A stretch of 59,081 nt of DNA, from the NCBI GenBank assembly GCA_018302605.1, contig JAGVZN010000010.1, positions 3,932 to 63,012 on the forward strand. The letters are read 5' to 3'. The notes beneath the pieces are model-generated. The model did not search any database, was not told the origin of the DNA, and saw only the letters and a program-made list of their open reading frames with translations. The position numbers and the translations under genes are program-made. This document shows, piece after piece, positions 5,243 through 53,171 of this stretch (the stretch's first letter is position 1; each line of letters begins with the position of its first letter). The DNA comes from Candidatus Woesearchaeota archaeon (lineage in GTDB: Archaea > Nanobdellota > Nanobdellia > Woesearchaeales > GW2011-AR9).

Positions 5243-5444
5243 GTACGTATTAAGTCTGTGCCGGGGCAGGTCGGCCTGCCTCGTCTCGCTCAGAAGCAGA
5301 GATCAGTTGAACAGAAGAATTATTCTCGAAGATAAGCGAGAATCTAACTTTTAGTTCAATAGCAACGCTCGGCAGGCCATCTTGACCAAGCCCGCACAGA
5401 CTTAACTTAATACCAAGCCCGCACAGACTTAACTTAATACGTAT
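5243..5444. mobile_element. Hairpin mini-element, family B copy 1
   Basis: TIR GTACGTATTAAG/CTTAATACGTAT; perfect 8-bp TSD TGTTAGTT (5235-5242 and 5445-5452); internal 27-bp tandem duplication; homolog at 40391-40566. Confidence 0.88.
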
Positions 5445-5781
5445 TGTTAGTTAAATCCAAAATTGCTTCAGCCAGATCACCCTGATGCTTTTTGATGGCT
5501 TCTTTGGCTGCTGTCTGATCAACACCGGCCTGATCCATGACTGCTTGAATATCTTCTGCAGAAATTTCCGGCATCGTCGAGAGGTTGCGTTCTTCAATAG
5601 TCCCGGAGATCTGGAAAGTTTCCTGCCCCATCATATTGACTTTGGCAACAGAAGGAGAGGTGATCACAATCTCTTTGTCCTCGGTGCGGATAATCACTTC
5701 CGTGGCGGGAATGTCTACCTGTTGGATGCCCATCTGCTTCATCATCTGCTGCATTTTCCGAGGGTTAAGTCCGGGAAGCAT
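5434..5781 (-). CDS. nac: Nascent polypeptide-associated complex protein (archaeal NAC)
   Basis: NPRKMQQMMKQMGI N-terminus, NAC domain, C-terminal UBA-like domain (EDIQAVMDQAGV..GDLAEAI). Confidence 0.93.
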   Translation of the reverse strand: MLPGLNPRKMQQMMKQMGIQQVDIPATEVIIRTEDKEIVITSPSVAKVNMMGQETFQISGTIEERNLSTMPEISAEDIQAVMDQAGVDQTAAKEAIKKHQGDLAEAILDLTNNTY

Positions 5782-5786
5782 GGTTC

Positions 5787-5957
5787 TCAGCTGAGGAGTC
5801 TTCCCCCAAAATAATTCAAAAGAATAAGAGCGACGATCACCAAAGCAATAAGAATGATCACACCTTTCGGAGAAATTTCCAGCTTGGAATGATATTCCTC
5901 AGTAAAACGGGTCAGTCCTCCCTGTCCGGAAGGCAAGCGTATGGGATCGTTGGCCAT
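5787..5957 (-). CDS. secG: Preprotein translocase subunit Sec61beta/SecG (56 aa, absent from the ORF track)
   Basis: MANDPIRLPSGQGGLTRFTEEYHSKLEISPKGVIILIALVIVALILLNYFGGRLLS: GL.RF.E motif, ISP, then one TM helix. Confidence 0.88.
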   Translation of the reverse strand: MANDPIRLPSGQGGLTRFTEEYHSKLEISPKGVIILIALVIVALILLNYFGGRLLS

Positions 5958-6001
5958 GGGTGGTTAATTTAGGCAGGATTTTATAAAGATTTCGGGAGGA
6001 A

Positions 6002-6054
6002 GTACGTATTGAGTTCAGTTTTAGTGCTTACCAACGAGTAAACTTAATACGTAC
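6002..6054. mobile_element. Internally deleted family B element (53 bp)
   Basis: GTACGTATTGAGTT ... AACTTAATACGTAC; flanks GGAGGAA/GGAGAAA resemble a degenerate TSD. Confidence 0.7.
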
Positions 6055-6074
6055 GGAGAAAATAATAACTGTCT

Positions 6075-6761
6075 CTACAATCTCACTGCTTTAATTGCCA
6101 GATAGGGTACTTCCATTCCACTGGAATTTACTGGTGCGGTCATTTTTTCAACGCTAAAGCCGGCGCTTTCCAGAATATCTTGATAATCCTGCTTTGTCCA
6201 GTAATGATCAATAAACTCAAATTCGTGTTCTCCTTTAATCTGAGCCAAAATTGGATCTCCGCCTCTTCCGGTAAAGCCTGGCGCCTGGTGGACACTGATA
6301 TAATCGCTTTCGTAAGGCAAAGCCACGGCATTAGACGTAACTGCGACGTACGTACTGCCCGGAAGAAGCAGCCTGGCAATCGTGTTGTGGATCTCTACGA
6401 GTCCTTCTCTCGTCGGCACTTCCATCAGCACACAACAAGTGAAAGCAGCGGTGCAATGTTCAGAATATTCCCCCAGACGAGCATCGCTGGTATGATAATA
6501 TTCTATTCCCGGGGAAGGGAGTGATTCAGCAATGGCCAGCATCTGTTTGTTTCTTTCAACGCCCAGCACACGATAAGCCCTCCATTGGTGCAAGAGACGG
6601 GACGACCGCCCTGTGCCGCAGCCGAAATCCAAGACCAGCTTTTCTTCCAGATCTCCAAACATCCGTCTGGCGACGGCGAGAACTGTATCCATTTCTGGGA
6701 TGGAAATTTCAGCTGTCTGTTGATATGTTTTAGCTGTTTCTGTCGTATACGTTGTGACCAT
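6075..6761 (-). CDS. Class I SAM-dependent methyltransferase
   Basis: VLDFGCGTG motif I; start moved to the ATG at 6761 because the longer ORF overlaps the RNase P RNA. Confidence 0.85.
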   Translation of the reverse strand: MVTTYTTETAKTYQQTAEISIPEMDTVLAVARRMFGDLEEKLVLDFGCGTGRSSRLLHQWRAYRVLGVERNKQMLAIAESLPSPGIEYYHTSDARLGEYSEHCTAAFTCCVLMEVPTREGLVEIHNTIARLLLPGSTYVAVTSNAVALPYESDYISVHQAPGFTGRGGDPILAQIKGEHEFEFIDHYWTKQDYQDILESAGFSVEKMTAPVNSSGMEVPYLAIKAVRL

Positions 6762-6780
6762 CGTCTTTCGTTTAAAAAGG

Positions 6781-7189
6781 TTGGTAGAGTGGCATAAGCC
6801 GCCTTCTGTCGGATCCAAAATGATTTCTGTGAATCATCGATGATCCGGGGAAGCATTTGACTAAGCGTTCATTCGAACTTGCACCGGCCAGGTCCACGGA
6901 AACAAGTTTCTGGGACCTTCCTATGATCATTGCCATAGAGCAGGGTTCGCCGTTTCATCGTTCCCATAACCAACGTCAAGGGGTTAACTTGCTGTTTTCG
7001 CAAACAGCTTCGCCATCGTTCCTGCGGGAACCTATCATCCTTAGTTATGGACGTGTCGTTTCTGAGCCAGAGCCACGGGATTTCTCCGTCTTTCATCTGA
7101 AAGTGGCCAGCATTATGAAGTTAATGCCAGACTGGTGGGCGGACTTTCCTGAGTGTTGAGCACCCTGCGCTTCCTGCCACTGCTACCAA
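6781..7189 (-). ncRNA. rnpB: Ribonuclease P RNA
   Basis: Minus strand has CAGGAAAGTCCGCCCACC, GGCTCAGAAACGACAC, GAAACGGCGAACCC, CGCTTAGTCAAATGCT and GACAGAAGGCGGCTTA; P1 pairing TTGGTAGCAGTGGCA/TGCCACTCTACCAA; TATA-like box about 20 nt upstream. Confidence 0.93.
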
Positions 7190-7254
7190 GAGGATATTTT
7201 ATCGGCTATTTTTTAAATGTTTTGGGAGAATTTGGGATCTGGAGTCAATGAGTG

Positions 7255-7398
7255 AATTTTCAGCACTGGCGGTCGGCGAGGCGCAAATGCGACTGGAAGG
7301 AGCATACGCCAAGTAGAGACAAGCTTTTCGACCATCAAGTGCGAAGCACCAGCGAGGAGAAAAGTTGTCCGTCGACCCGCCAGTGTGTGCTGAAAATT
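7255..7398. repeat. Long nested hairpin element (144 bp)
   Basis: AATTTTCAGCAC/GTGCTGAAAATT outer stem; inner ACTGGCGG/CCGCCAGT and GACAAGCTTTTC/GAAAAGTTGTC stems. Confidence 0.65.
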
Positions 7399-7459
7399 TA
7401 AATTAGTGCCCAAAATTACCCCTGATTGAATAGGACAACCATTATCCATCAACTTCAAT

Positions 7460-8152
7460 TCACACCATCTCTACTTTCAATAACAGCTCTTCCATCCCTT
7501 TCTTATGGCCGGCTCCGACTACAACTAATATCTTTTTATCTTTATTTCCACGTACTAATTGGACGAGTTTCCGCACCATATACTTGTTTCGGTCTTCAAT
7601 GAGCGTTTTGTGGAGTGAAGGATAACGCTCTTTGAGATGCTCGATCATCTCGAGCAGTATTTCTTCGGGGGGGACACTGCGCAAGTCAAACTGGCTGATC
7701 TTCCACTTCTTCATCTGTTTCCGCGGCTGGATCAAGCCGAAGAGGATGTCTGAAGCAAAGCGCCCGCGTTCCCTCCAGGTAAAGCCTTTGGAGAATTTTT
7801 GCAAAGTAAGATGAATGGGCTGATCGATCAATGCGATTTGCAGGTTCTGCTTGCGGGCAATTTCCAAGGCAGTCTTCATTTCGGAACCCGGCGAAACTCC
7901 AACGCTTTTTCCTAACTTCTGCTGGATGTAATGGCCGAGGCGGGCGAAGAGGTAGCCTTTAAGCCCGAAGGAGCGCACTTGCTGGAGGTGGGAAGGCTGT
8001 TTATCTCGTCTTTCTCCTTGTAGAAGCACGCTCGCTCGTTGCGAGTCCAATTCTAAAGCGATGATCTGCGGCTGATATTCAGCGACAATTTTCTTCAATT
8101 CTTCGATGCTCTGTCTGGCAATATGCGACGTACCCAGTATCCTCAGATTCAT
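7460..8152 (-). CDS. TraB/PrgY (pheromone shutdown-like) domain protein
   Basis: ILGTSHI, IALELD, PGSEM, ALIDQPI, LIEDRNKYM, VVVGAGH motifs. Confidence 0.88.
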   Translation of the reverse strand: MNLRILGTSHIARQSIEELKKIVAEYQPQIIALELDSQRASVLLQGERRDKQPSHLQQVRSFGLKGYLFARLGHYIQQKLGKSVGVSPGSEMKTALEIARKQNLQIALIDQPIHLTLQKFSKGFTWRERGRFASDILFGLIQPRKQMKKWKISQFDLRSVPPEEILLEMIEHLKERYPSLHKTLIEDRNKYMVRKLVQLVRGNKDKKILVVVGAGHKKGMEELLLKVEMV

Positions 8153-8222
8153 GGCTGTTCGATAACAGAAAAGTATTTAAAGCTACGCTCACTTAAACGG
8201 CATACAGCGAGGTGGATTTACC

Positions 8223-8498
8223 ATGTTGAAGATGAAGAGGGTATCTGAAGCATACGATTTAAAAGTATTCACGGACGGCGGCGATTATTTCGGCGATGTC
8301 GAAGATTGCCTAGTTATGTCTAATAAAGTTTCCGGGTGGAAGATTAAAGCGACGAAAAATTCATTCCTTAGTCGTGTCATCGGCAGTGCGAAAGGTGTGA
8401 TTGTGCCGCATCAGCTGGTCAAAGCGGTGGGTGATATCCTGATCATCTCCAAGACTGCGGTGCCTAGCAGCGGCCATCCCGACGAACCAGAAGAATAA
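8223..8498 (+). CDS. PRC-barrel domain protein (CdpB-like)
   Basis: KVFTDGGDYFGDVED and VIVPHQLVKAVGDILII signature; GAGGTG RBS. Confidence 0.85.
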   Translation: MLKMKRVSEAYDLKVFTDGGDYFGDVEDCLVMSNKVSGWKIKATKNSFLSRVIGSAKGVIVPHQLVKAVGDILIISKTAVPSSGHPDEPEE

Positions 8499-8703
8499 AA
8501 TGATTGATTAGAGTCCACACATGAAATTTCAGAAATACGTTCAAGATCTTCTGCATTACCAATTCTACAACGGTGATCTTGAGGAAGCTGAATACGAATT
8601 ATATGTGGCGGCGTAATGTTTTGGCATGAAGCGCCATCGTTTAGTTTCCAAATTATGCCTGAGAAGAGAAATTATTATATAGGAAAGTTGTTCTTTTCTG
8701 TTG

Positions 8704-8898
8704 ATGATTGATCCTTTGGTCGTACTGGAAGTGATGGTCGCGATCATCGTCGCCCTCTTCTTAGGAAATATTCTTCGGGCTACTTTAAAAATATTATTTT
8801 ATGTATTGATATTTGTCCTGGTGATGGTCTTTGTGTTCGGAGTATCTTATAATGAGATGGTCAGCTGGGTGATGAAAGTAGTGTTGTGGGCGTTTTAA
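8704..8898 (+). CDS. Small hydrophobic membrane protein
   Basis: About 64 aa, two TM segments, TATA-like box upstream. Confidence 0.6.
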   Translation: MIDPLVVLEVMVAIIVALFLGNILRATLKILFYVLIFVLVMVFVFGVSYNEMVSWVMKVVLWAF

Positions 8899-8967
8899 GG
8901 GAATTTCTGTGGTTAAAGAAAAATAATTCAAAAGAAAAAAATAATTCAAAAGAATAAGATAAAAAGC

Positions 8968-9444
8968 TTAGATCTTCAGTTTTCCTGCATTCAAAAGTAG
9001 TTTTTCTTTTCCTTCCGGATCAAAGTTGATGCTAAACATGGAATCTGATAGAGAAGAATCCTGCTTTGCTCTTAATAAGAGATAATAGTCTTTGCTTTCG
9101 TCAGTACCTCCTGCGTAGGCTTGATATAAACCAACTTTCAAGAGAGCACCGCCTTTTATCCCCCCAGCATAATCTTGATAAAGATATTCTAACTCAATGG
9201 TTTCGCCGGTTTCAATATCTTTGAGCAGTATAAATTTTGGATTTACTTTGGAAGGGGCGTCCGCACCTTGATACTGGTAGAGGTGAAGCTTTCCGGTTCC
9301 ATCGGGCAGAGCAAAATAATCCCCTTTTACAACCAATTGGCCTCCGGTACTTGTTGCCTGTCCTGCCAAAGTTTCCCCCGGCGCACAGGCCACCACAAAC
9401 AATGTCAAAACCATTAATCCTAAAACTACCGCCATTTTCTTCAT
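8968..9444 (-). CDS. Putative secreted lipoprotein with LAGQA motif
   Basis: MKKMAVVLGLMVLTLFVVAC signal/lipobox; GGTGA RBS upstream of the ATG at 9444. Confidence 0.7.
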   Translation of the reverse strand: MKKMAVVLGLMVLTLFVVACAPGETLAGQATSTGGQLVVKGDYFALPDGTGKLHLYQYQGADAPSKVNPKFILLKDIETGETIELEYLYQDYAGGIKGGALLKVGLYQAYAGGTDESKDYYLLLRAKQDSSLSDSMFSINFDPEGKEKLLLNAGKLKI

Positions 9445-9575
9445 GAGTATCACCTGATTAATTGATGGAATAACAGAAACCATTGATCTATTTAAAGATG
9501 CGTTACCCCCCCCCGTCGTAAAATGATTTTTTGGAATACGAAAACTTATAAAGAGATCGGGGTCTAAATCTTTCC

Positions 9576-10556
9576 ATGGAATCAACCATCTGGACGGAAA
9601 AATATCGGCCAAGCACGTTTGATGAAGTGCGCGGACAGAAAGAAATCATCGAAAAAGTCCGTGCGTTCGTGGCTAGCGGCAGTATGCCTCATCTGCTGTT
9701 CAGCGGTCCAGCAGGAGTAGGAAAGACGACGCTCTCGTTAGTTATTGCCAAACAGCTTTTTGGCGAAAATTGGCGGCAGAATACCTTAGAGCTTAACGCT
9801 TCAGATGAGCGGGGGATTGATGTTGTCCGCGTCAAAGTTAAAGATTTTGCCCGAACCAAAGCGATCGGTGATGTACCATTCAAGCTAATCTATCTGGACG
9901 AGAGCGATGCGCTGACCAAAGAGGCGCAGCAGGCACTGCGGCGGACGATGGAGAATTATACCAAGACATGCCGTTTTATTTTGTCGTGCAACTATTCATC
10001 AAAGATTATCGATCCGATCCAGAGCAGATGCGCAGTGTTTAGATTTAAACCGTTGAGTAAAGAGGATATCGATTTATTCGTGCGTGAGAGATTGTTAAAG
10101 AAAGAATTTGAGTGCAGTGGTCCGGATCAAAATGCTGTTTATCGACAGGTGATTGATGCACTTTATGAAGTTTCTCAGGGAGACATGCGGAGGGTGATGA
10201 ATATATTACAGAGTTGCGCGGTGTTAAAGAAGTATATCACCGCGGATGATGTCTATTCGATGGCTTCGGTAGCCAAGCCGAAAGAGATCGAAAGCGTCTT
10301 GGAATTGGCCGCAAAAGGCAATTTTGTCGAATCGAGAAAAAAACTGCTCGATCTGATGCTGCAATATGGGTTGGCTGGCTTGGATGTCATCAAGCAAATT
10401 CAACAGGGGATCTGGCATCTCCCAATTGATGACCGGCAGAAAGTAGCATTGATCGATAAATGCGGTGAAGTGGAATTCCGCATGGTTGAAGGAAGTGATG
10501 AATATTTACAATTAGAAAGCTTTTTGGCATTTGTGGCAATGGTCGGGATGAAGTAA
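9576..10556 (+). CDS. rfcS: Replication factor C small subunit
   Basis: WTEKYRP, GPAGVGKTT, ELNASDERGIDVVR, LDESD, IQSRC motifs. Confidence 0.96.
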   Translation: MESTIWTEKYRPSTFDEVRGQKEIIEKVRAFVASGSMPHLLFSGPAGVGKTTLSLVIAKQLFGENWRQNTLELNASDERGIDVVRVKVKDFARTKAIGDVPFKLIYLDESDALTKEAQQALRRTMENYTKTCRFILSCNYSSKIIDPIQSRCAVFRFKPLSKEDIDLFVRERLLKKEFECSGPDQNAVYRQVIDALYEVSQGDMRRVMNILQSCAVLKKYITADDVYSMASVAKPKEIESVLELAAKGNFVESRKKLLDLMLQYGLAGLDVIKQIQQGIWHLPIDDRQKVALIDKCGEVEFRMVEGSDEYLQLESFLAFVAMVGMK

Positions 10557-10573
10557 GGGCATCATCCGGTCTA

Positions 10574-10596
10574 AAACGCGGAGTATTCCACCACTC
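10574..10596. repeat. Family E element left-end fragment
   Basis: AAACGCGGAGTATTCCACCACTC is identical within the copies at 31684 and 55461. Confidence 0.75.
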
Positions 10597-10658
10597 CCCA
10601 CATTACTAATAAATAAACAACTCTTTGTATAAATTATTTTGTCGTTTACTATAACTCC

Positions 10659-11561
10659 CTATTTTGCGCTTTCTTTCACTCTCAATTTCTCCTGAATCAA
10701 GTCCTGATACTTGTAGTCTAACGTCAATTTGACCTGACGGACTTCCAGTGTCTTAGCGGCAAGTGCTTGTTTTAACTTACAGACAACATCAACCTTGCCG
10801 TTGACGAGGCGCGCTTCATCCACCTTTCCTCCTGATTTGCATTCCCAAGCTGGATCGTCGATGGAGAATCCAAGTCTATTAGTCAAACCAAAATCACCGG
10901 TGAGCGTGCTTACATCACCGGTTCCTTTGTTTTCAACGGTAAACTTAAGGGCAACTATCCCCTTGCCTGCCGGTTCTTCACTGACCGCCGTAACAGTAAC
11001 TGGAGCGGCAGACACAAAGAATTTCTTCGCCCCTTGAACTTCACAGACACGCTTGTCGGTAAGATCTTCTTTGAGACATATCTCTGGAACGATGACCTGG
11101 GTCTGATATTTATATTGAACATTGGCAAACCACGTGCGATCGAGCAACCCGACAACCTTGCTCTTCATTTTGGCATCGCTGGAGAATGAGATGGTTTCTT
11201 CTCCACCGTTGGGAAGGAGATCAGAAATCTTTTCTATACTGCCTGTATTCTTCAGCGTCCACGATGGAATCCCTGCAAATTCTTCCTTGGACAGGCCGGT
11301 TAGGGTCACGCTTACATCATCTTTTTGAATCTCATATTCTCCTTTGTTGCGGATAGTTACTTCCACGGGGAAAGTTTCGGTATCAAAAATGCTGGATACT
11401 CCTGCTTCTTCAACGCCAAACGGCTCAAATTCAGCAACGACACCTTGCGTTCCACCAATGAAGACACCGGTTGTTTGGGTCTGCTGTTCACTGCCGCCGC
11501 AGGATGTCAATAAGAATAAACTGAAGATAAGTATGGGCACTAAGATCATTCTTTTATTCAT
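10659..11561 (-). CDS. Putative surface lipoprotein (paralog family with 11618-12568 and 42607-43491)
   Basis: LTSC lipobox, beta-rich, paired Cys, APV.V motif, C-terminal L.Y.Y. Confidence 0.72.
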   Translation of the reverse strand: MNKRMILVPILIFSLFLLTSCGGSEQQTQTTGVFIGGTQGVVAEFEPFGVEEAGVSSIFDTETFPVEVTIRNKGEYEIQKDDVSVTLTGLSKEEFAGIPSWTLKNTGSIEKISDLLPNGGEETISFSSDAKMKSKVVGLLDRTWFANVQYKYQTQVIVPEICLKEDLTDKRVCEVQGAKKFFVSAAPVTVTAVSEEPAGKGIVALKFTVENKGTGDVSTLTGDFGLTNRLGFSIDDPAWECKSGGKVDEARLVNGKVDVVCKLKQALAAKTLEVRQVKLTLDYKYQDLIQEKLRVKESAK

Positions 11562-11617
11562 GCTATCGCCTCTTTGGTTTGTAATGTGATTGTAAAGGTG
11601 TTTCTTCTTAATAAAGG

Positions 11618-12568: not shown

Positions 12569-12654
12569 CTGTTGAATAAACGTTTTTAGTTATATAAGTC
12601 TTTTGGTGAATCGCTTCGCAAAATCTTATAAAGAAATAGGCCGTTCTGATCACT

Positions 12655-12897: not shown

Positions 12898-12904
12898 ATG
12901 TGTT

Positions 12905-13062
12905 GTATTTGTTTAGCTTTTCCGGCAGGCCGCGCATCCGAGCGGAAATCTGCAAAAGTATTTTCTGCTTCTCGCTGTGAACCAGAAGATTTCCGCGCCA
13001 AGCTAGGAACAAAGTCTCTTCAGATGCGCGCATCTTGGCCTTGCCGCCAGCTAAACAAATAC
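12905..13062. mobile_element. Hairpin mini-element, family D copy 1
   Basis: TIR GTATTTGTTTAGCT/AGCTAAACAAATAC; 8-bp flanks GATGTGTT/GATGTTTT; homolog at 56943-57049. Confidence 0.85.
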
Positions 13063-13121
13063 GATGTTTTCTGATGATGAAGATTCCTCAAAGAGATAGA
13101 TAGGATCAAAAATCGAGACTT

Positions 13122-15279: not shown

Positions 15280-15307
15280 GATGAAACTAAAATACGTACT
15301 ATTTTTA

Positions 15308-15470
15308 GGCACTGTAGAAAAAGTCGTCCGTCTGGCCTGAAGATTGACCGTGATAAGCGATCTGCTGGAACAGGTGTGAAAAAGATAAGATTGACTGGCT
15401 GGTTCTGCAACCACGAACACAACTGGTTTTCGCCACGGTCAATGACTATGACGACTTTTTCTATATCGCC
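15308..15470. mobile_element. Hairpin mini-element, family C (GGC-ended, IS903-like ends)
   Basis: GGCACTGTAGAAAAAGTCGTC/GACGACTTTTTCTATATCGCC; perfect 9-bp TSD CTATTTTTA; inner ATTGACCGTG/CACGGTCAAT stem. Confidence 0.85.
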
Positions 15471-15498
15471 CTATTTTTAGAAATCTTTATAAATAAGT

Positions 15499-31683: not shown

Positions 31684-31757
31684 TTGAAACGCGGAGTATT
31701 CCACCACTCTCCACAGTGAAAAGAATATTTCACTGGGACACTAATTGGAATACGCTC
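31684..31757. repeat. Family E hairpin element after secY
   Basis: 27 nt identical to 55461-55487; GTATTCCA/TGGAATAC and CAGTGAAA/TTTCACTG stems. Confidence 0.75.
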
Positions 31758-36767: not shown

Positions 36768-36833
36768 GTATGTATTCAGTTAAGTCTGTGCTGGCTGGGT
36801 CAAGATTGGTCTGCCTATGTATGTATTAAGTCT
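36768..36833. mobile_element. Family B fragments (inverted right half plus a second left end)
   Basis: GTATTCAGTTAAGTCTGTGCTGGCTGGGTCAAGATTGGTCTGCC is a degenerate reverse complement of the B1 right arm; followed by GTATGTATTAAGTCT. Confidence 0.7.
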
Positions 36834-40193: not shown

Positions 40194-40232
40194 ACTTTTG
40201 TTTTTCTCCGTTTCGCAACTTCACTCGTTGTA

Positions 40233-40384
40233 GGCTCTGTCAAAAAAGTCAGCCGCCTGGCCAAGAGGTTGCCTGAGAACTGCAATCTCCCCAAGTTATT
40301 GGTGCTTCTTGGCTGTAATCTAAGCAGCTGGAGAAGCATGAAGGCAACGGCCAGGCTGACTTTTTTGAGATTTTCTACAGAGCC
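40233..40384. mobile_element. Hairpin mini-element, family C
   Basis: GGCTCTGT/ACAGAGCC ends, TCAAAAAAGTCAGCC/GGCTGACTTTTTTGA stem, degenerate 9-bp flanks CTCGTTGTA/CACATCGTA. Confidence 0.8.
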
Positions 40385-40390
40385 CACATC

Positions 40391-40566
40391 GTACGTATTA
40401 AGTCTATGCTTGGACAAGTCGGCCTGCCTCGTCTCGTCCAGAAGCAGAGAGCAGTTGAACTGAAGAGTTATTCTCAGAGATCGGCGAGACTCTGAATTTC
40501 TTGTTCAAAGCCACCGCTCGGCAGGCCATCTTGACCTAGCCCGCACAGACATAACTTAATGCGTAC
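40391..40566. mobile_element. Hairpin mini-element, family B copy 2
   Basis: Colinear homolog of 5243-5444; TIR GTACGTATTAAG/CTTAATGCGTAC; flank CACTCGTC matches CACTCGTT at 40222-40229. Confidence 0.88.
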
Positions 40567-45392: not shown

Positions 45393-45428
45393 TCCTGATC
45401 AAAGCAAAAAAAGAAGAGACCAGAAAGC

Positions 45429-46538
45429 ATGAAGAAAAATAGAACCTGGCGAAATGTCTTCCAAGGCGGTAATCGGCAGTTTCATCAGCGTATCTTTTGG
45501 ATACTTTTAGCCGTTGTCCTGATTCTGGCTGTCTTTTCTTTGTTGAAAGCGATGGGCCTGTTGATTTCGGCCCAGCCAACTCCGCTCATCGTTGAAAATA
45601 CGATTGATCTCGCTTCATTGTCATTGGAACAGAAAATTGCCCAGATGATCATCGTCGCCGGACAGAAATGGAATATGCAGGCATGGAAACGTCTGCAATT
45701 AGGCGGGATCCATCTCTATGCCAAAGCAAATGAAAGTATTTTTCAGGAAACGATCGGTCAATTTCAGAAAGGGATGGCCATCCCTTTCTTTGTTACGATT
45801 GATCTAGAGGGATGTCAAAACCCCTTTGCCGTGTTCAAGAATTTTACGGCAGCTTCCGAGATCACGACGCTCGATGCGGCATTGAAAAAAGGAGAAGAGG
45901 AAGGTGCCTATCTTTCCGCATTGGGGGTCACCGTAAATTTCGCGCCAGTGGTCGATCTGGAGGACACGATTTGGAAATGCCGCAGTTTCCTCGGGGATGC
46001 GGAAATGATTGCTGTACTGGCCGAAGCCTATGTTTCCGGCCTGCAAGAAGAGAATATTTTGGCGACGGCAAAGCATTTTCCGGGGAAAACGCTGGTTGTG
46101 CAGGATCCGCACAAATACCTGGTGGCGGCCAGCATCTCTGCTGCTGATCTTCTGCCTTATCAGCGCTTATCTTCTTTGGTCAAGGCAATCATGATCAGCC
46201 ATGTGATCTCTTCCGGTTCCCTCGATTCACAGGGCATCCCGGCGGCGGCATCTCCTGAGGCAGTGCGGATTCTCCGGGAAGGATTTGCAGGTCTGATCGT
46301 TACGGACGAGGTTAATATGCTGGGACTGACAAAATTTTATCCCACATTAGACAAAATGTATCTCGCCGTGTTCAAAGCGGGAAATGATCTCGTTCTTAAT
46401 TTCAATGAAGATCCGTATGAGATCCAACGGATGATTGCGGTGATTAAGGAGGCAGTAGAGCGTGGAGAGATACCCGAGGAGAGGATCAATGCTTCCGTGC
46501 GCCGCATCCTGCAAGCCAAAGGATTTAATGTGAGCTGA
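45429..46538 (+). CDS. Membrane-anchored glycoside hydrolase family 3 (NagZ-like beta-N-acetylhexosaminidase)
   Basis: LSLEQKIAQM, IDLEG, NFAPVVD, KHFPG..DPH, GLIVTD, AGNDL, ERINASVRRIL; N-terminal TM. Confidence 0.88.
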   Translation: MKKNRTWRNVFQGGNRQFHQRIFWILLAVVLILAVFSLLKAMGLLISAQPTPLIVENTIDLASLSLEQKIAQMIIVAGQKWNMQAWKRLQLGGIHLYAKANESIFQETIGQFQKGMAIPFFVTIDLEGCQNPFAVFKNFTAASEITTLDAALKKGEEEGAYLSALGVTVNFAPVVDLEDTIWKCRSFLGDAEMIAVLAEAYVSGLQEENILATAKHFPGKTLVVQDPHKYLVAASISAADLLPYQRLSSLVKAIMISHVISSGSLDSQGIPAAASPEAVRILREGFAGLIVTDEVNMLGLTKFYPTLDKMYLAVFKAGNDLVLNFNEDPYEIQRMIAVIKEAVERGEIPEERINASVRRILQAKGFNVS

Positions 46539-46548
46539 TCGTCGCGGT

Positions 46549-46570
46549 ACAGACTTAACTTAATACATAC
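46549..46570. repeat. Family B right-end fragment
   Basis: ACAGACTTAACTTAATACATAC matches the B1 right end. Confidence 0.7.
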
Positions 46571-46924
46571 AAAAAAGCGGCACAATCCATTTTGTGAGTG
46601 ATGGTGAGCCGTCGCTGAAGCCAATTTTAAGAAATTTCAGAGATACAGAAGAAAATTGGCCCAGTTCCAGTATTATTTCCAGTATTATAGCTATCCTTCA
46701 GCGACCATTTGGCGTCACCATCACTCACTTTTCGGATTGTGCCAAAAAAGCGGCTAATATGAAACCCTCTCGCGTTGCTTGGTTACTGCCAGCTCCGCAC
46801 TTGCTGTAGAACACAATCAGCGACGTTCCCCGTAGGGGGCAACCCCTTTGTCGCTTTGATATTTCTATCGAGAATGCTCCGCAAAGGGCAGTAACTACAG
46901 GGTTTCATATTAGCCCAAAAAAGC
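46570..46924. mobile_element. Tandem array of two different 164-bp GGC-ended hairpin units separated by three CAAAAAAGC repeats
   Basis: Repeats at 46570, 46743 and 46916; unit 1 GGCACAATCC/GGATTGTGCC with GTGAGTGATGGTGA/TCACCATCACTCAC; unit 2 GGCTAATATGAAACCCT/AGGGTTTCATATTAGCC. Confidence 0.85.
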
Positions 46925-47004
46925 GACATCTTTTTAAAGGAATCACTGCTTTAGCAGGAACGGGTATCTATAAAATAACTACATCCGGGCTTATCCAAGA
47001 CAAC

Positions 47005-47793
47005 ATGACAAAAGCAACCGACAAAAAACAAGTAAGCAGAGTTAAAACCAAGAAAAAATCTTGGTTTAGAGTTATCGCTCCTCCTTTCTTCGGGCAGCTG
47101 CAGATCGGGGAAACATATGTCGAAAATCCGGAAACTATTCTGGGGCGAAAGATAGACGTCAATCTCAAAGAATTGACGAATAACATCAAAGACCAGAGTG
47201 CTTATGTTTCTTTTCGGATGATCAGTGCAGAAGGAGCACAGGTTCATACCGAGCCGATGGGTTTTTATCTCACACCCTCTCATGTTAAGCGCCTTGTTCG
47301 AAAGAGTACGTCGCGCTTGGATGATTATTTTGTTTTTTCGACAAAAGCGGGAGAGCGTGTCATTATCAAGACGATTATGGTTACCAGATCCAAAATCCAG
47401 CGTTCGGTGAGGACAGCGCTCAGTTCAACATTGCGTTCCCTTCTTCAGGAGGAGTTCCAAAAGACGGATTTCAACGGCTTCCTTTCGTTATTGATCGGCG
47501 GACGTCTGCGTAAAACATTATTTGCATTGAACAAGATCAGCCCTCTCCGCGAAGCGGCGGTCCGGGTTGCTTCACTTCAAGTGAAAAAAGATGGTCAGCG
47601 CATAACTGCAGAAACTTCCTCCGCGCTGGCTGCTGAAGAAATGCCGGCAGCTGACGAGAACACGGAGGATCAAGCTGAAGATGCCTTTGTTGAGGAACCG
47701 GAAGAGGCCGCCGAGGAAGAAGCTGCTGAGGTGGAGGCCATAGTTGAAAGTGCTGATGGCGAACAATCCAACGACGAAGAAGGAACAGCATAA
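47005..47793 (+). CDS. rps3ae: 30S ribosomal protein S3Ae (eS1) with acidic tail
   Basis: KKKSWFRVIAP..FG...IGET, KRLVRK.TSRLD, KISPLR. Confidence 0.92.
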   Translation: MTKATDKKQVSRVKTKKKSWFRVIAPPFFGQLQIGETYVENPETILGRKIDVNLKELTNNIKDQSAYVSFRMISAEGAQVHTEPMGFYLTPSHVKRLVRKSTSRLDDYFVFSTKAGERVIIKTIMVTRSKIQRSVRTALSSTLRSLLQEEFQKTDFNGFLSLLIGGRLRKTLFALNKISPLREAAVRVASLQVKKDGQRITAETSSALAAEEMPAADENTEDQAEDAFVEEPEEAAEEEAAEVEAIVESADGEQSNDEEGTA

Positions 47794-47814
47794 TATCTCT
47801 CTTCTTTTTGCCAG

Positions 47815-48411
47815 ATGAAATTCCTTGCTTGTACGGATATGCACGAAAATAGAGAAGCACTCAAAGCGTTAGTCAAGAGAGCTTCTGAATCGGATATCGA
47901 TTTTGTGGTTTGTATGGGAGATATCTCCTCGTTTGGAAATGGGCTGCGTACCGTTCTCAAAGCATTTAGCGATCTTGAGAAGACATTTTATGTTGTTCCG
48001 GGGAATCACGAGGAAGGGCGTGACTTTGAGGGAATCGTCAAAGATTTTCCGCATTGCATCAACCTCCATCTGAAAGCGGCATCGATCAAAGAGTATGTTT
48101 TTTTGGGCTACGGCGGCGGCGGGTTTACGATGAAAGACGCAAATTTTCGAAAGATTGCCCGCCAATGGTACGGAAAATTTAACGGGAAGAAAATTGTATT
48201 ACTGACACATCAGCCGCCATTTGGCACAAAGTTAGATAGGCTTGGCGACCGCCACGTGGGAAATGTTGATTTTCATGATTTCATCCTGCGGATCAAGCCG
48301 AAACTGGCGATTTCCGGACATCTTCATGAGACTGTCGGGGAGATGGACACGCTGGGGGAAACGAAACTGATCAATCCCGGCTGGGATGGGATGGTTATTG
48401 AATTGAATTAA
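47815..48411 (+). CDS. Calcineurin-like metallophosphoesterase
   Basis: TDMH, GDIS, PGNHE, THQPP, GHLHE, INPG. Confidence 0.92.
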   Translation: MKFLACTDMHENREALKALVKRASESDIDFVVCMGDISSFGNGLRTVLKAFSDLEKTFYVVPGNHEEGRDFEGIVKDFPHCINLHLKAASIKEYVFLGYGGGGFTMKDANFRKIARQWYGKFNGKKIVLLTHQPPFGTKLDRLGDRHVGNVDFHDFILRIKPKLAISGHLHETVGEMDTLGETKLINPGWDGMVIELN

Positions 48412-48462
48412 GGGATTTCTTGTTCAGTTATTTTTATATAGTTCGTGTTCTTCACCAGGGTT

Positions 48463-49503
48463 ATGGCTTTAACCACTCCATTTACTTCTCTTCCCGGCCT
48501 AATCTTGTCGGATCTTGCGGAAATCAAGAAGAAAGATGCGCTGTTTAAAGAAGTGAAGAGACGGTTAAAAAAAAATTATCCCGTCAAAAAAGTTGCCAAT
48601 CTCCAGAAGAAATATCTCAAAAAGCCAGAATCGTTTCAGGCAGAATTTGCTCGTCTTGTCGATGATTTTGTCAAAGATTATACCTTCTTCCGAGAAGCGT
48701 ATGGTTCTTTATTGAGAGCAATTATTGAGACGTTGAATGTGGCAGAGAAGAGTGAATACAATGAATTGTTATCGATAGAGGAGATCATTCTGAAGATTGA
48801 AGCACGAGCAAAAGAAAAAGGGGGGGAGTTCTATTTTCCGGAAGCGGGAAAGAAACAGTTTGCCAAAGCATTTCGCGGGGCGATGCGCGATCTGGCTGCT
48901 CAATTGAAAATGGAATATGATACTCTTTCGGGGTTAGCGCGGGGAAAACGGACTGCTGCCGGCTTCTTCTCTCGGTTTGTGAATGCTCGTTCAGCTGAAC
49001 GTAAAGGGATGCGTGCTGCGGGAAAATTACGCGGACAGATTGACCATACTCAGGTAGTGCTGAAGCATCTTGAATTGGAGCTGCAACAAGGAGTACAGCA
49101 GGATTTTCTTCTGCTGATGCTGCAATTTGTGGCCGAAGTAGCGAAGACAGATGAATTGTATCGGCAATTAAAGAAAGATCTGGAAATTCTGATCCAAGAC
49201 ATCCGTAATGAAGTAGAAGATGTCGTGCTGAAGATTGCCCCGTTCATCGCCCTGATTCAAAATGATCGGCGGGCTATGGAAAGAATTGCGGCAGCGCGGG
49301 CGGCATTTGTGAAAATGCAGGAACAAATCGTTGCCGCGCTGGAAAAAGAAAAATCGTGGCCGAAATATGATGAAGCAACTCTGCGGAGGATAATGCGGAG
49401 CGATCTTATCTTATTGGCAACATTACGGGGTATTTCTCAAAGAGCAGTACAAGGCATTGTTGCTGATGTCGTGCATCGGGAATTAGGGACTCAGCAGGTT
49501 TAG
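48463..49503 (+). CDS. Hypothetical long alpha-helical / coiled-coil protein
   Basis: 346-aa clean ORF; TATA at 48433-48440, 22 nt before the ATG; stop overlaps the A2 terminal repeat. Confidence 0.7.
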   Translation: MALTTPFTSLPGLILSDLAEIKKKDALFKEVKRRLKKNYPVKKVANLQKKYLKKPESFQAEFARLVDDFVKDYTFFREAYGSLLRAIIETLNVAEKSEYNELLSIEEIILKIEARAKEKGGEFYFPEAGKKQFAKAFRGAMRDLAAQLKMEYDTLSGLARGKRTAAGFFSRFVNARSAERKGMRAAGKLRGQIDHTQVVLKHLELELQQGVQQDFLLLMLQFVAEVAKTDELYRQLKKDLEILIQDIRNEVEDVVLKIAPFIALIQNDRRAMERIAAARAAFVKMQEQIVAALEKEKSWPKYDEATLRRIMRSDLILLATLRGISQRAVQGIVADVVHRELGTQQV

Positions 49504-49684
49504 AGAAGTTTGAATAATTCAATTATTTGTCTACAAACTTCATGAAAAATGAAAACTATCATTTTTCAGAACCAAAAACAAATCGTCGTTTGTTTTTGTG
49601 TTCTCAAGAGAATTTGAAACGGGCGTAATTTTGGCATGAAACCAGCGATTTATTCGCCAAAATTACTCTTTTTCAAACTTCTCT
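49502..49684. mobile_element. Hairpin mini-element, family A copy 2 (with about 60-bp double-hairpin insert)
   Basis: Same TIR as A1; extra TGAAAAATGA/TCATTTTTCA and CAAAAACAAA/TTTGTTTTTG hairpins. Confidence 0.78.
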
Positions 49685-49688
49685 TTAA

Positions 49689-50642
49689 TCATTCCTCTTT
49701 CTTCTTCTCAATCGCATCCATGAACACTTTGCTGATCTTGACGGCAACACCTTTGTCTTTGGTATTGATCTCAACACCAGACATCACCGCTTCACCGATG
49801 GCGACGAGCTCGTCTTTGAGGGTCATGATGGCAACGGTTTCCCCTTTGCGGAAATTCTCTAACTTACTAATGCCCGGAATGGCCAATGCCCGGCCGTGGG
49901 TAACGCTTTGAATTGTCGTATCCAAAATCCAGCATTTAGAAATAGGTTTCAACGCTTTTTCCATCGGCTGGATACAGTGGCGAAGAAAGGTGTCATTGTT
50001 TTCGCCGCGGTAAAAATGGATGGCATCATCAAGATCGTTGAGGGTGATCAGAGTATCTTTTTCACTGAATGGTCCGGCCTGTGTTCTTCTTAACTCAACC
50101 ATATGCGCGCCTATGTCGAGTGCTTGTCCGAGGTCATGGCAAAGCTTACGGATATATGTTCCCGCCTGGCATCTGACGCGAAAAAGAACTTCTCTGCCAT
50201 TGATTTCCAGAATCTCAAATTCGTAAATCTCTCTTTCTCGCAACTGACGCTTGATTGCGCTCTTGACTGGAGGCAGCTGCTTGATCTTGCCGATGAATTG
50301 CTTTGTGGTGTTTTGAAGTGTCTGTTCATCTATGTCTTTATGCAGATGCATGACGCAGACATATTCTTTTGGTGCAGTGAGCAGAAATTGGACGATCCGC
50401 GTGGCTTTGCCCAAGGCGACCGGTTGAACACCAGAAACCTGCGGATCAAGTGTCCCGGAATGGCCGGCTTTATCGATCTTTAGGATTTTCTTGACATAAT
50501 CAGACGTTTGGTGTGATGTTGGGCCTTTTGGTTTGTCGATGTTGACGATGCCATAATGGATCATCTCTTCCGTTGTTCTTTCTTCCGGAGCTTTGCCAAA
50601 TATTCCTACGGCTTCTTTCTTGATGAAGAGCTGAGTGTCCAT
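49689..50642 (-). CDS. cbf5: H/ACA RNA-guided pseudouridine synthase Cbf5 (TruB family)
   Basis: IDKPKGPTSHQ, GHSGTLDP, GTYIRKLCHD, ELRRT, PUA domain. Confidence 0.96.
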   Translation of the reverse strand: MDTQLFIKKEAVGIFGKAPEERTTEEMIHYGIVNIDKPKGPTSHQTSDYVKKILKIDKAGHSGTLDPQVSGVQPVALGKATRIVQFLLTAPKEYVCVMHLHKDIDEQTLQNTTKQFIGKIKQLPPVKSAIKRQLREREIYEFEILEINGREVLFRVRCQAGTYIRKLCHDLGQALDIGAHMVELRRTQAGPFSEKDTLITLNDLDDAIHFYRGENNDTFLRHCIQPMEKALKPISKCWILDTTIQSVTHGRALAIPGISKLENFRKGETVAIMTLKDELVAIGEAVMSGVEINTKDKGVAVKISKVFMDAIEKKKEE

Positions 50643-50711
50643 AATTATCTAGCGGGAGAAGTTGTTTTAAAAATGTTCGTATGAGAAAATCACTAACCAG
50701 TGAAATGACTT

Positions 50712-51095
50712 TTAATTTGTTACTGATGCTGTTTCTGCTTTCTGTTCGGGAGCTTCGGTTTCTTTTTTGGATGTTTTTACTCCCGCTTTCTTCTGCGGCG
50801 CTCTCTCTTTCTTTTCCACACCAAACAATTCGGCGCGGGCAATTCCTGTTTCGTCTTTTGTGACGGTCACTTTTACATGATGAGGCGGGTTCTTGATGCC
50901 GTGTTGCCATAATTTTTCGTTGACATCTTTTCCCAGACGGACTTCCGGGGTTTTCATGTGGCGCACCAGAAACTGCTTGAGGGCGATAACTGCTTTGTTC
51001 GTGCGTTTCCAGTTTGGAACTTTTTGGTATTCTTTACGCAAGGGAACATTATACGTCCTTTCCACTGTTTTTTCCGATTCTTTTTTTGCGGCCAT
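50712..51095 (-). CDS. rpl31e: 50S ribosomal protein L31e
   Basis: ERTYNVPLR, KRTNKA, RHMK, W.HGIKNPP. Confidence 0.94.
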   Translation of the reverse strand: MAAKKESEKTVERTYNVPLRKEYQKVPNWKRTNKAVIALKQFLVRHMKTPEVRLGKDVNEKLWQHGIKNPPHHVKVTVTKDETGIARAELFGVEKKERAPQKKAGVKTSKKETEAPEQKAETASVTN

Positions 51096-51191
51096 GGTGG
51101 TTTGGTTGATCTGGTGAGATTATGCTCCCGGTCATATATTATGTTTTGATGATGTTATTGATTATCAGTTCATTCATGATCATTTCATTCA

Positions 51192-51365
51192 TTACGCTTT
51201 GGTTTTGGTTCTGCGCCAGCTGCGCTTCACTTCCGTATGGCGCGAGGGATGGACGCGCCGTCCTTTTCCGTAGACTTTGAAAACAGTCCAAAAAGGAGCC
51301 CATTTTGTCTGCTTGCTCAGCCTGATCAGACGTCTTTTGCGAGCGGGATGTTTGTTTGTGGCCAT
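51192..51365 (-). CDS. rpl39e: 50S ribosomal protein L39e (57 aa, absent from the ORF track)
   Basis: MATNKHPARKRRLIRLSKQTKWAPFW..RSWRRTK; between S19e and L31e. Confidence 0.88.
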   Translation of the reverse strand: MATNKHPARKRRLIRLSKQTKWAPFWTVFKVYGKGRRVHPSRHTEVKRSWRRTKTKA

Positions 51366-51383
51366 TGTTGAGAGATTAATCTT

Positions 51384-51818
51384 TTATTTGCTTTCTTTGA
51401 AGAGCTGCATGGCGATCTTATCGAGGAAGGATGTCCCTTTGGGGGTGAGGATCCGCCCTTTATGTACTCCTTTTTCTGTCTGTCGCAGCAAACCGGATTT
51501 TTCCAACTGCTGGAGAATGGAACGGACGATGGATCCGGAGGCGGGATAGAAATGTTCCGGCTTATGGCCGCGATTCTTGCGTCCGCCGTATTTGGTGCGA
51601 AGTTTTTGCGTACCGATGGGGCCTAATTTAGCAACGACGCGAAGAATGGATGCTGAACGGAAGTACCACCAATCTTCCTGGTCTGGGGTCCGTTCTTTGT
51701 GATGACCGGTCTTGACGAAAGCAGACCATGGTTCTGGCTGGACTAATTTGTTCGCTTTGAGCTCTTCTGCTGCCCGCTGGACCAGTTTTTCCGGATTTAC
51801 AATCAGTATATGTGACAT
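51384..51818 (-). CDS. rps19e: 30S ribosomal protein S19e
   Basis: [39 protein letters not shown]. Confidence 0.96.
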
Positions 51819-52071
51819 TGGCTCATCAGGATTGGTGGTGATTTATAAAGGTTTCGTGATGCGAATCAGTTTTGGGATTATATGACTTAGTTTGGGGATT
51901 ATATAGTTGATTCGCGAGATAATTCGGAGGTGTATAGTCGTCCAACTTCGTTTGACAAGAAAATTCCCTCACACGCTGATGAGTGAAACTAAATACCTAC
52001 TCGATTAAAGCACAATTCAAAAAGTAAGTGATATAGTAAACTGCGCAATTATCTGTAATATCAACCAACGA

Positions 52072-52215
52072 GAGAGTGCTGCCGGCCGTTCGGTCTGGCG
52101 AAAACCAGAAGGGGAACGCTGCTTCTCGAAGAGTCGTGATCAACGGATAGTTTTCGCTCCAACATCTTTAGTGGAAAGCACTTCAGACCGAACATCTTGG
52201 CCAAGCAGCACTCTC
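52072..52215. repeat. Nested hairpin element (family F) carrying the ATCTT-bulge motif
   Basis: GAGAGTGCTGC/GCAGCACTCTC, GGCC/GGCC, GTTCGGTCTG/CAGACCGAAC and GCGAAAAC/GTTTTCGC stems. Confidence 0.78.
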
Positions 52216-52292
52216 CGGCGCTATCACTCCCAAAAAGGATTGTGCCTCCATTCAGAACATTTTAAATATCTTCTTTGTTTCTTCCAATACTG

Positions 52293-52982
52293 GTGGTCGT
52301 TTTGTTAAGAAAGAAGGTGCTCCTCGTACTCCTGATTATTTTAACTATTTCTCTCGTCGCAGCACAAAATGAATCAATCTCTCCCGCGACGGGAAAAGCC
52401 AGTTCGGCGGGAGAGGCAAATGATGGTTTTAAGAAATTTCTGGATGATCCTGCTAAGATCAAAGGCGTGACGATTACAGATAAAGGCGGCGGCGGTGCAG
52501 CGCCGCTGGAGAAGCCTTTGTTTGTTTCTTCGTCTGGAAAGACGCCAGCGGACGGCGAGAATAAATTTATTCAGTTTATCTTTTGGCTAGGCAGTTTATC
52601 TTTTCTCTTCGGCGGGCAGGCGGAAAACCAGCTCTGCGGTTTCTTGAGAATTCTCCTGGCGTTTCTCGTCTTTACGATCCTCTATTTTCTGGCGTCGATG
52701 ATCCCTGGATTAACGCGTGGAGTAGCGATTACGATCAGCATCATTTTGGCGATACTCGTTGCCGTTTTCACGCCTTGTGTCGTGTTGTTGGCTTGGGGGA
52801 CATCGTATGCGACGATTTTTGCTTTCGTCGTTATCTTCGGTCCGGTGCTGGCAGGGTTGGCGTTGTTATTATTTACACCGACTCCCAATCGCAGGACGGC
52901 ATTTTTGAAATTAGTGAGCGTGCTGGCGTTGATGTGGCTGGTCTATTCGATCAGTTTCTGGGCAAAACAATTGGGCGGGTGA
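52293..52982 (+). CDS. Signal peptide plus 4-TM membrane protein, paralog 1
   Basis: Highly similar to 53232-53786 (SMIPGLTRGV, AWG.SYAT, FTPTP); start uncertain (GTG at 52293 fits the TATA spacing). Confidence 0.7.
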   Translation: MVVLLRKKVLLVLLIILTISLVAAQNESISPATGKASSAGEANDGFKKFLDDPAKIKGVTITDKGGGGAAPLEKPLFVSSSGKTPADGENKFIQFIFWLGSLSFLFGGQAENQLCGFLRILLAFLVFTILYFLASMIPGLTRGVAITISIILAILVAVFTPCVVLLAWGTSYATIFAFVVIFGPVLAGLALLLFTPTPNRRTAFLKLVSVLALMWLVYSISFWAKQLGG

Positions 52983-52997
52983 GTCTGCTCCGAATGA

Positions 52998-53171
52998 GGC
53001 TTTGTGTAAAAAGTGCTGCTCCGCAGGTTGTGCCGTGCCCAGCGCCGCTGTTCGGATTGTTGTTTGGACAAAGATTCGCTATGTTTACGTTCAACAGCGG
53101 ACAGTAACTTTGTCTTACGAATCGTAGTTCGCTGTGCACCTCTTGGCACAACATACTTTTTACACAAAGCC
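52998..53171. mobile_element. Hairpin mini-element, family C
   Basis: Perfect 17-bp TIR GGCTTTGTGTAAAAAGT; perfect 9-bp TSD TCCGAATGA; ends and TSD length resemble IS903 (IS5 family). Confidence 0.9.

Follow-up and report, generated by a model that had tools for sequence, protein, structure and literature searches.

A covarying hairpin core with a 5-nt bulge is shared by miniature transposable elements with three kinds of ends in one family of Woesearchaeota

What is kept constant in a group of short hairpin-forming repeats whose ends are unrelated to each other? This question is raised by a 59,081-nt stretch of Woesearchaeota DNA (G000:C2:3932-63012, hereafter "the window") which belongs to G000, a groundwater metagenome-assembled genome (MAG) of 1.16 Mb in 32 contigs. 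The original prediction for this locus, made from the letters alone, held that hairpin elements with unrelated termini fold into one and the same junction consisting of a short GGYC helix, an inner helix and a 5-nt bulge on the 3' strand. The coordinates given for these bulges proved correct throughout, and each bulge is followed by GACC, GGCC, GGCA or GGC. In all six elements tested, the minimum free energy (MFE) fold displays this common junction, i.e. a 4-bp helix, a bulge on its 3' side and an inner helix. The bulge comprises 5 nt in five of these folds and 7 nt in the element D1, and the fold z-scores range from -1.97 to -4.49. One conserved junction is indeed carried by elements with unrelated ends: the sequence of the inner helix differs wholly between families while its pairing is retained, and the short helix covaries (GGCC/GGCC, GGUC/GACC, UGCC/GGCA, AGCC/GGCU and GGCU/AGCC). 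The initial observation is confirmed and stronger than had been claimed.

A genome-wide scan blind to the bulge sequence (perfect 7-bp inner helix plus GC-rich perfect 4-bp outer helix, span 80-150 nt) returned 69 hairpins with a 5-nt bulge, compared to 15, 13, 14 and 13 with bulges of 1-4 nt, 13, 21 and 11 with bulges of 6-8 nt, and 44 without any bulge. Shuffling, a check named beforehand, was applied to the genome, and three shuffled genomes yielded 10, 5 and 5 members of the 5-nt class. Six families account for 57 of the 69 hairpins (B 12, D 12, D2 3, F 5, C 10, G 15), their bulges reading ATCTT, CTCTT, TTCTT, CGCTT, CATTT or CTTNA. At least eight element families share the junction composed of GGYC, the 5-nt pyrimidine-rich 3' bulge and the variable helix.

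The shared part goes beyond the junction and encompasses an entire core of ~95-120 nt with three helices. P1 is GGCC, P2 consists of 7-11 bp of any sequence starting with GU and ending with AC, and P3 is mostly GCGAAAA/UUUUCGC. In the families D, D2, F and G, GGCC is followed by a P2 strand of 10-11 bp and immediately by P3 (GCG(G)AAAAC...GTTTT(C)CGC), which closes a variable hairpin; then come a linker of 25-35 nt beginning with CACC, a GC-pyrimidine stretch, P2', the 5-nt bulge and the second GGCC. The families C, E, B and fam15 show the identical order of parts with other P3 sequences. Although the D, D2, F and G cores sit within three kinds of termini, they are alignable by plain MAFFT, and RNAalifold predicts 23 pairs for the alignment, compensatory changes being seen at 15 of these. 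Judged by this alignment, the cores are clearly homologous.

Covariation was counted over 66 aligned rows from 10 genomes (61 full-length cores plus five partial P3 hits). Standard pairs occupy 96.5% of the cells versus 70.9% in shuffles, and double-sided changes are found at 21 of the 23 pairs. The covariation score amounts to 0.578, compared to 0.149 in shuffles, none of 500 of which reaches it, and to at most 0.097 when the partners are slid. All 61 of 61 cores agree in the two central pairs of P1, six of the eight inner P2 pairs occur in all four Watson-Crick types, and 32 distinct P2 strands are present among the 61 full cores. The bulge measures 5 nt in 54 of these cores (6 nt in three, 7 nt in two, 4 nt and 9 nt in one each), and in 59 the strand opposite to it is empty (0 nt). 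Fixed are P1, the 5-nt pyrimidine-rich bulge, the two pairs with which P2 begins and the greater part of P3, while the remaining ~8 pairs of P2 are free provided that they are complementary. Since it is only the pairing that is kept in P2, the selected feature would be an intramolecular fold rather than a double-stranded binding sequence. The prediction that selection acts on an RNA or single-stranded DNA structure therefore stands in part: the constraint consists of intramolecular pairing plus a few fixed bases, while the RNA is not supported, the covariation numbers showing a constraint on complementarity and not the existence of an RNA.

The cores are carried by mobile elements. By nhmmer, 95 full-length copies are present in the genome (B 21, C 14, D 15, D2 3, E 6, F 6, G 30), and the core-bearing families are by far its most abundant repeats; families with the same shell and another interior have three copies each. 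The full copies are small (152-240 nt), multi-copy, intergenic and polymorphic in position, and the consensus sequences of the families possess inverted termini of 14-45 nt, features which characterise MITEs (miniature inverted-repeat transposable elements). A predicted clustering of unit lengths at 145-176 nt is wrong, as they extend from 152 to ~240 nt; the F element of the window alone measures 237 nt (52010-52246). Tips could be located in 55 of the 95 copies, and a direct repeat of at least 8 bp flanks 42 of these 55. The target-site duplication (TSD) has a length of 8 bp in B, D, D2, E and F and of 9 bp in C and G. Together with the terminal inverted repeats (TIRs), these 8- or 9-bp duplications are real footprints of transposition. 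As mobility of this kind is ordinary, the proposed term "mobile structured-RNA family" overstates the data; what they give is a MITE superfamily with a shared structured core.

The termini are of three kinds. The first (type I), GTACGTATT.., is found in B and in elements of genomes G010, G014, G003 and G024, and the D/D2 tip GTATTTGTTTAGC appears, by its look, related to it. The second (type II), GGCACA..GTGAGTGAT, is found in E, F, family 16 and G029, and the third (type III), GGCTCTGT.., in C, G, fam15 and G020. The 14-nt terminal repeat of the G010 element directly abuts GGCC on the left, while on the right four extra bases (ATCT) intervene, so that the right-strand GGCC has pyrimidine stretches on both flanks. 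Elements of G010 with the same ends and lengths of 36, 70, 169, 213, 309 and 401 nt are deletion or insertion derivatives of a 145-nt core element. Some likenesses between core and shell may be recorded here. The linker after P3 (e.g. in the G family and in G010, L045) harbours a conserved (A/U)YCUGU-KCCUGU stretch, and in G010 it reads CTGTGCC, which are the letters of the type-II right tip; it could be the relic of an internal transposase site. Likewise, D2 has a P2 helix (GTGAGTGAGAG) similar to the inner portion of the terminal repeat of type II (GTGAGTGAT), a likeness which hints that helices may move between shell and core, unless it is due to chance.

To what extent the core is spread was addressed with two covariance models. 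The first, R1, was trained on D, D2, F and G cores only. In its own genome it matches 92 places at E <= 1 and recovers the untrained C family at E-values of 1e-7 to 1e-4. With the filters switched off it also scores family E at 12.8-26.9 bits, fam15 at ~20 bits and, weakly, B at 6-15 bits, always on the predicted strand; the C family yields ~6 bits on the reverse strand versus 35-40 bits. Among 36 further genomes of this taxonomic family, R1 detects the core in nine, and among 24 genomes of other families in none. The second model, R2, built from 61 cores of 10 genomes, matches 53 of the family's 114 genomes, which represent 24 of its 58 genera, leaves 61 of the 114 without a match, and finds no core in 149 genomes from other families of the order (strict filters, only 22 candidates scored per genome). 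A search of viral contigs with the core pattern gave no matches. The other genera retain GGCC, the GU..AC ends of P2, an (A/C/U)UCUU bulge and CGAAAA/UUUUCG, while P2 and the shells differ. One copy in G024 exhibits a compensatory change within P3 (CGAUUU/GAAAUCG).

The insertions turn over rapidly. Genome G002, a congener, shares 18 kb of synteny with the window in blocks of 80-90% identity. The site which carries a C element and the element B2 in the window carries an E-type element in G002; the F and fam15 sites are either empty there or hold a fragment of another family, and G002 possesses E- and D-type insertions at sites that are empty in the window. A B remnant at 46538 is the only copy possibly shared. 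Turnover between the two congeners is thus high. The intergenic site at 40228-40566 (L071:790-944 in G002) was struck independently in the two species, by C plus B2 and by the E-type element, respectively; it lies next to CACTCGTC and looks like an insertion hot spot.

None of the 95 copies lies inside an open reading frame (ORF; crude call), all of them being intergenic. In tandem gene contexts 32 copies are oriented in sense and 21 in antisense, and in view of this absent orientation bias a role as terminator or 3' untranslated region was rejected. Just 34 of the 95 copies are more stable when folded as the bulge strand. G.U mismatches outnumber A.C mismatches among the copies (50 versus 26), yet the excess is produced by one consensus G.U pair which closes P2 in D, F and G, and once this pair is excluded the remaining copy-level mismatches look neutral. 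Since the excess stems from a single consensus pair and not from copy-level selection, wobble pairs were rejected as evidence for an RNA; with neither a strand preference nor a wobble excess beyond that pair, the claim that the folded molecule is RNA is not borne out. As the copies are young, unoriented and decaying neutrally, selection would act during the multiplication of the elements and not on a function for the host.

How can one core reside within three kinds of ends? The reading we favour, at about even confidence, is that the MITEs of a single Woesearchaeota family share a homologous core which is likely a cis-acting module, recognised by its structure and combined with three kinds of ends. 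The elements themselves would be selfish MITEs, probably aiding their own spread rather than the host cell. Single-stranded DNA or RNA folded into a hairpin, or else a cruciform, could provide the selected fold. A structure-specific factor, either a transposase or an architectural helper, may read the module through the GGCC stem, the bulge and P3, and the one-sidedness of the bulge would confer a polarity on the hairpin. If any terminal repeats that enclose the module become more successful through it, this would explain the combination of the module with three end types, the presence of one core in all three suggesting that it has recombined with different terminal repeats, or these with the core. 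A bolder version, which we regard as quite improbable, would see in the core a new class of structured nucleic-acid module, recognised or acting as a folded single strand of RNA or DNA, that confers mobility on whatever pair of terminal repeats surrounds it in DPANN archaea. It would imply a structure-guided cut-and-paste step in which the bulge beside GGCC docks a protein or directs cleavage while P2 serves as a free spacer helix.

Several points weigh against a structure-recognised module. The aligned rows are related copies fitted to a model, which inflates the statistics, and covariation between arms is expected of any palindromic DNA element and on its own is no proof of a fold. The bulge sequence varies within family D (seven variants in 15 copies); the bulge is constrained in length and pyrimidine content, not in its exact letters. 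An intact P2 may not be strictly required, because the 213-nt variant in G010, which bears a 68-nt insertion inside P2, still has six copies. Moreover, classical DDE transposases read double-stranded ends, and we know of no described precedent in prokaryotes for the requirement of a folded core. Finally, searches for IS1595, ISL3, IS1, IS256 and DDE_Tnp_1 transposases produced no autonomous element with matching ends in these repeat-broken MAGs, and DDE_Tnp_1 does not track the core: 29 genomes possess both, 24 the core only, 27 the transposase only and 34 neither.

The search for the mobiliser may be given in full at this point. PF12762 and PF01610 are absent from the assembly, and PF12762 also from five element-rich relatives. 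PF01609 is present in 56/114 genomes without clear co-occurrence with the core; one copy in G210 adjoins a tip which resembles the fam15 end, while a left end was sought and not found. PF00872 was rejected, as it occurs in only two of the 114 genomes, in the form of fragments with unrelated ends. An insertion sequence (IS) collapsed at three contig ends was dismissed as well: it is IS1-like (homologue in G018: PF03400, 74 bits), and IS1 does not track the core. In G010 (L112:1609-2154) an IS110-type (DEDD) transposase ORF is located ~1.5 kb from a MITE tip; the two are probably unrelated. The type-III ends start with GGC and generate 9-bp TSDs, as ISfinder lists for the IS903 group of IS5, which we take as a lead only.

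Four other explanations have to be weighed. Subterminal protein sites on duplex DNA might be formed by the GGCC box and the inner sequence, the 5 extra bp on the right (in G010, four more outside GGCC) rendering unequal the ends which are paired in a synaptic complex. The unequal spacers of piggyBac ends and the 12/23 rule offer parallels. The extra bases always reside on the same arm relative to P3; the right arm of G010, with CTCTT before and ATCT after GGCC, is ~9 bp longer in total, and B carries a second 5-nt insertion further out on the same arm. In the Emigrant MITE, the TIRs as well as repeated motifs in subterminal position are bound by Lemi1 proteins (PMC1636448). Yet P2, situated between GGCC and P3, has no fixed sequence (32 variants among 61 cores), so that a reader of duplex DNA would need a variant for each; P3 is a one-sided local hairpin, unlike paired subterminal sites, and the net extra length varies between families. 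We thus consider an asymmetry of duplex ends unlikely. Equally unlikely appears neutral inheritance from one old palindromic MITE whose ends were swapped by recombination or nested insertion; a process at the DNA level, for instance repair templated by the hairpin, would maintain its palindromy, and its fixed bases would simply be those that have not yet changed. The clear homology of the cores, the frequency of nested or adjacent insertions and of deletion derivatives, the neutral look of copy mismatches once the consensus G.U pair is set aside and the missing orientation bias would all fit. What speaks against it is a sharp contrast in rate over few bases, the two central pairs of P1 being invariant in 61/61 cores while all four Watson-Crick types are seen at six of the eight inner positions of P2. 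In addition, the same fixed bases recur in nine other genomes (seven genera) of the family within three kinds of shell, the bulge is 5 nt long in 54/61 cores, and a repair that copies one arm onto the other would erase both the bulge and the one-sided 25-35-nt linker.

The two remaining explanations invoke RNA. A selfish or regulatory RNA, transcribed and folded, might be a substrate for processing, act as a small ribozyme that cleaves itself, or form a hairpin which stabilises or terminates neighbouring transcripts. In bacteria, the hairpins of ERIC, RUP and Correia repeats stabilise or terminate neighbouring transcripts. Conserved unpaired bases beside covarying helices are typical of structured RNAs, and the consensus G.U closing P2 in D, F and G pairs on the bulge strand only. 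Stable structures in MITE transcripts and effects on expression are noted in the accessible part of a MITE review (PMC10969869). Set against this, a comparison with Rfam 15 families (including hairpin, hammerhead, twister, C/D and Y RNA) covered the entire window and, up to E = 5, matched none of the elements. The bulge strand is the more stable one in a minority of copies (34/95), the orientation relative to genes is unbiased (32 versus 21), and no oligo-T terminator follows the hairpin. Taken together, this renders such an RNA distinctly improbable. Least credible of all, and very improbable indeed, is a host-domesticated family of non-coding RNA genes with a cellular function. High copy number and a structure conserved across 24 genera would agree with it; it is at odds with orthologous sites that do not keep their copies between congeners, with the 61 of 114 family genomes that lack a match, with common deletion derivatives and truncated copies, and with TSDs which mark recent insertion.

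A catalytic or splicing-endonuclease role, suggested in the original prediction, is not supported, as the junction is neither a bulge-helix-bulge (BHB) motif nor a kink-turn. By definition, a BHB motif has a 4-bp central helix and two bulges of 3 nt, which lie on opposite strands and in each case 3' of that helix. Like the archaeal BHB, the elements possess a 4-bp helix flanked by unpaired bases; they differ in that their single 3'-strand bulge is 5 nt long and located 5' of the helix strand, the other strand being empty (0 nt in 59/61 cores), and BHB was rejected on these grounds. The kink-turn (3-nt bulge, tandem G.A/A.G) was rejected on the consensus, in which Watson-Crick GGCC follows the bulge and tandem GA steps are missing. 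Palindromic elements of the IS200/IS605 type (PATE, REP), which have neither TIR nor TSD, do not apply, given the TIRs and 8-9-bp TSDs. A relation of the GAAAAC/GTTTTC stems to CRISPR was dropped, since a simple k-mer scan revealed no array in the assembly, and so was a guide-like reading, as 8-mers are not systematically shared between core interior and shell (one chance match). GGCC as a restriction-modification target was likewise rejected: its observed/expected ratio of 0.81 is mid-range among palindromes. Of 2852 GGCC sites, 228 lie within repeats.

With integron attC sites the cores would share one working principle. An attC site is recognised as a folded single strand whose pairing is maintained while its sequence is free, and its polarity is set by extrahelical bases on one strand. 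In contrast to attC, the elements do not form cassette arrays, they possess TIRs and TSDs, and their flanking GGCC does not fit the conserved R-box pattern. They are members of neither the attC nor the BHB class. Closer at hand are the prokaryotic MITEs (Correia, ERIC, RUP, Sulfolobus SM) covered in the accessible part of PMC10969869, which are small, non-coding, intergenic and multi-copy as well, with TIRs, TSDs and long hairpins. Here, it is the interior and not the termini that is common to the families, one core occurs within three kinds of ends, and fixed unpaired bases accompany a sequence-free covarying helix. The closest precedent is provided by the coral CMITEs, whose internal regions are more conserved than their TIRs, as in our elements, and for which the authors suggest a role in transposition (PMC2872659, accessible part). 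CMITEs are eukaryotic, piggyBac-related and of one terminal motif, whereas three end types and structural conservation are found here; the accessible part of that paper reports neither structural covariation nor a bulge motif. A woesearchaeal genome ranks among the most MITE-dense archaea in a survey (PMC11602168, accessible part). We found no description of the covarying GGCC-plus-bulge core in the literature as far as accessible, although the supplementary tables of PMC11602168 may list the families. While MITEs are well known, the covarying GGCC-plus-bulge core within three end types, confined to one archaeal family, appears to be new.

If the core truly promotes mobility, the success of MITEs in these tiny DPANN genomes would rest not on terminal repeats alone but also on a folded module in the interior, a mechanism to which little attention has been paid in prokaryotes. 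Nor would the effect be negligible, as short repeats make up ~3% of the genome. The core yields a covariance model, ready for use, by which one Woesearchaeota family can be recognised, many copies being present in each genome, and the more than 30 natural P2 variants constitute a set for tests of structure versus sequence. It is also a warning to those who hunt for RNA motifs that transposon hairpins can give strong covariation.

Within the window, the elements are arranged as follows. B1 (5243-5444, +; 202 nt, type-I-like ends) contains a 27-bp tandem duplication in its right arm; its core spans 5269-5387 with the bulge ATCTT at 5379-5383, and its TSD TGTTAGTT is present at 5235-5242 and 5445-5452. 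D1 (12905-13062, +; 158 nt) has its core at 12928-13040 with GGCC at 12928-12931 and 13037-13040; the bulge of this copy is GC plus ATCTT (ATCTT at 13032-13036), i.e. 7 nt, and R1 matches 12920-13048 with 96.5 bits. Two positions had been put forward as weaker instances of the junction. The one at 15338 turned out to be a full G-family copy on the minus strand (15302-15480, type-III ends; nhmmer match C2:19233-19411, R1 match 15326-15455 (-), 97.1 bits). The other, at ~36802, does not hold: it is a truncated B right arm (36768-36815, -) in which bulge plus GACC are present and the 5' partner is gone, so that the junction cannot form. The C-family element (40233-40384, -; 152 nt, type-III ends) has its core at 40259-40352 and a minus-strand bulge CTCTT, and is matched by R1 at 40251-40360 (-) with 34.9 bits even though the C family lies outside the training set. 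Directly adjoining it is B2 (40391-40566, +; 176 nt; bulge ATCTT at 40528-40532). The E-family element, previously listed as "array unit 1" (46579-46743, +; 165 nt, type-II ends; core 46608-46713), has a P1 of just GCC/GGC, the bulge CATTT at 46706-46710 and the TSD AAAAAAGC, and is matched by R2 at C2:50530-50653.

The F-family element (52010-52246, +) has type-II ends and carries, in this copy, an additional insertion within its left arm; its core occupies 52084-52202 with the bulge ATCTT at 52194-52198, and R1 matches 52076-52210 with 90.4 bits. The element at 52998, assigned to C in the original prediction, belongs to a separate three-copy family, fam15 (52998-53171, +; ends GGCTTTGTGT..). 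Its core lies at 53031-53148 with P1 being UGCC/GGCA and the bulge CTCTT at 53140-53144; it scores 21 bits with R1 and 68 bits with R2 and is flanked by the 9-bp TSD TCCGAATGA at 52989-52997 and 53172-53180. A D-type deletion derivative (56943-57050, +; R1 match 56958-57082, 53.1 bits) retains the left arm, P1, P2 and P3 and has lost P2', the bulge and the 3' GGCC.

The E element is part of a nest at one target (46538-46930) which comprises a B remnant, the E element itself and a fam14 element (46752-46915) without the junction motif. These are separated by repeats of (C)AAAAAAGC, a reused target duplication, and the congener has a whole B element at this site. Across the genome, self-BLAST delimits 250 repeated intervals of at least 60 nt (37,271 nt, 3.2% of the genome), most of them 150-200 nt and the longest up to 515 nt. 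MAGs are broken at the repeats, and so are Logan contigs of four DNA metagenomes. Further repeat families with several near-perfect local hairpins each are represented at 54898-55004, 55461-55618, 10574-10602 and 31687-31715; they are devoid of the GGCC-bulge core, and one of them, ~300 nt long, contains AAACGCGGAGTATTCCACCACTC. At contig breaks of G000 (C18 right, C2 left and C3 left; 5+3 further ends), two insertion sequences of several copies each have been collapsed by the assembly. One is the IS1-like sequence; the second has the ends AGAGAAGTTTGCA(T/A)AATT, and a related MITE is found in the window at 79-209 and 49498-49693. The only Rfam match in the window that reaches the gathering score is the archaeal RNase P RNA RF00373 (6783-7187, -; 100.9 bits), which, at ~400 nt compared to the 288 positions of the model, carries insertions.

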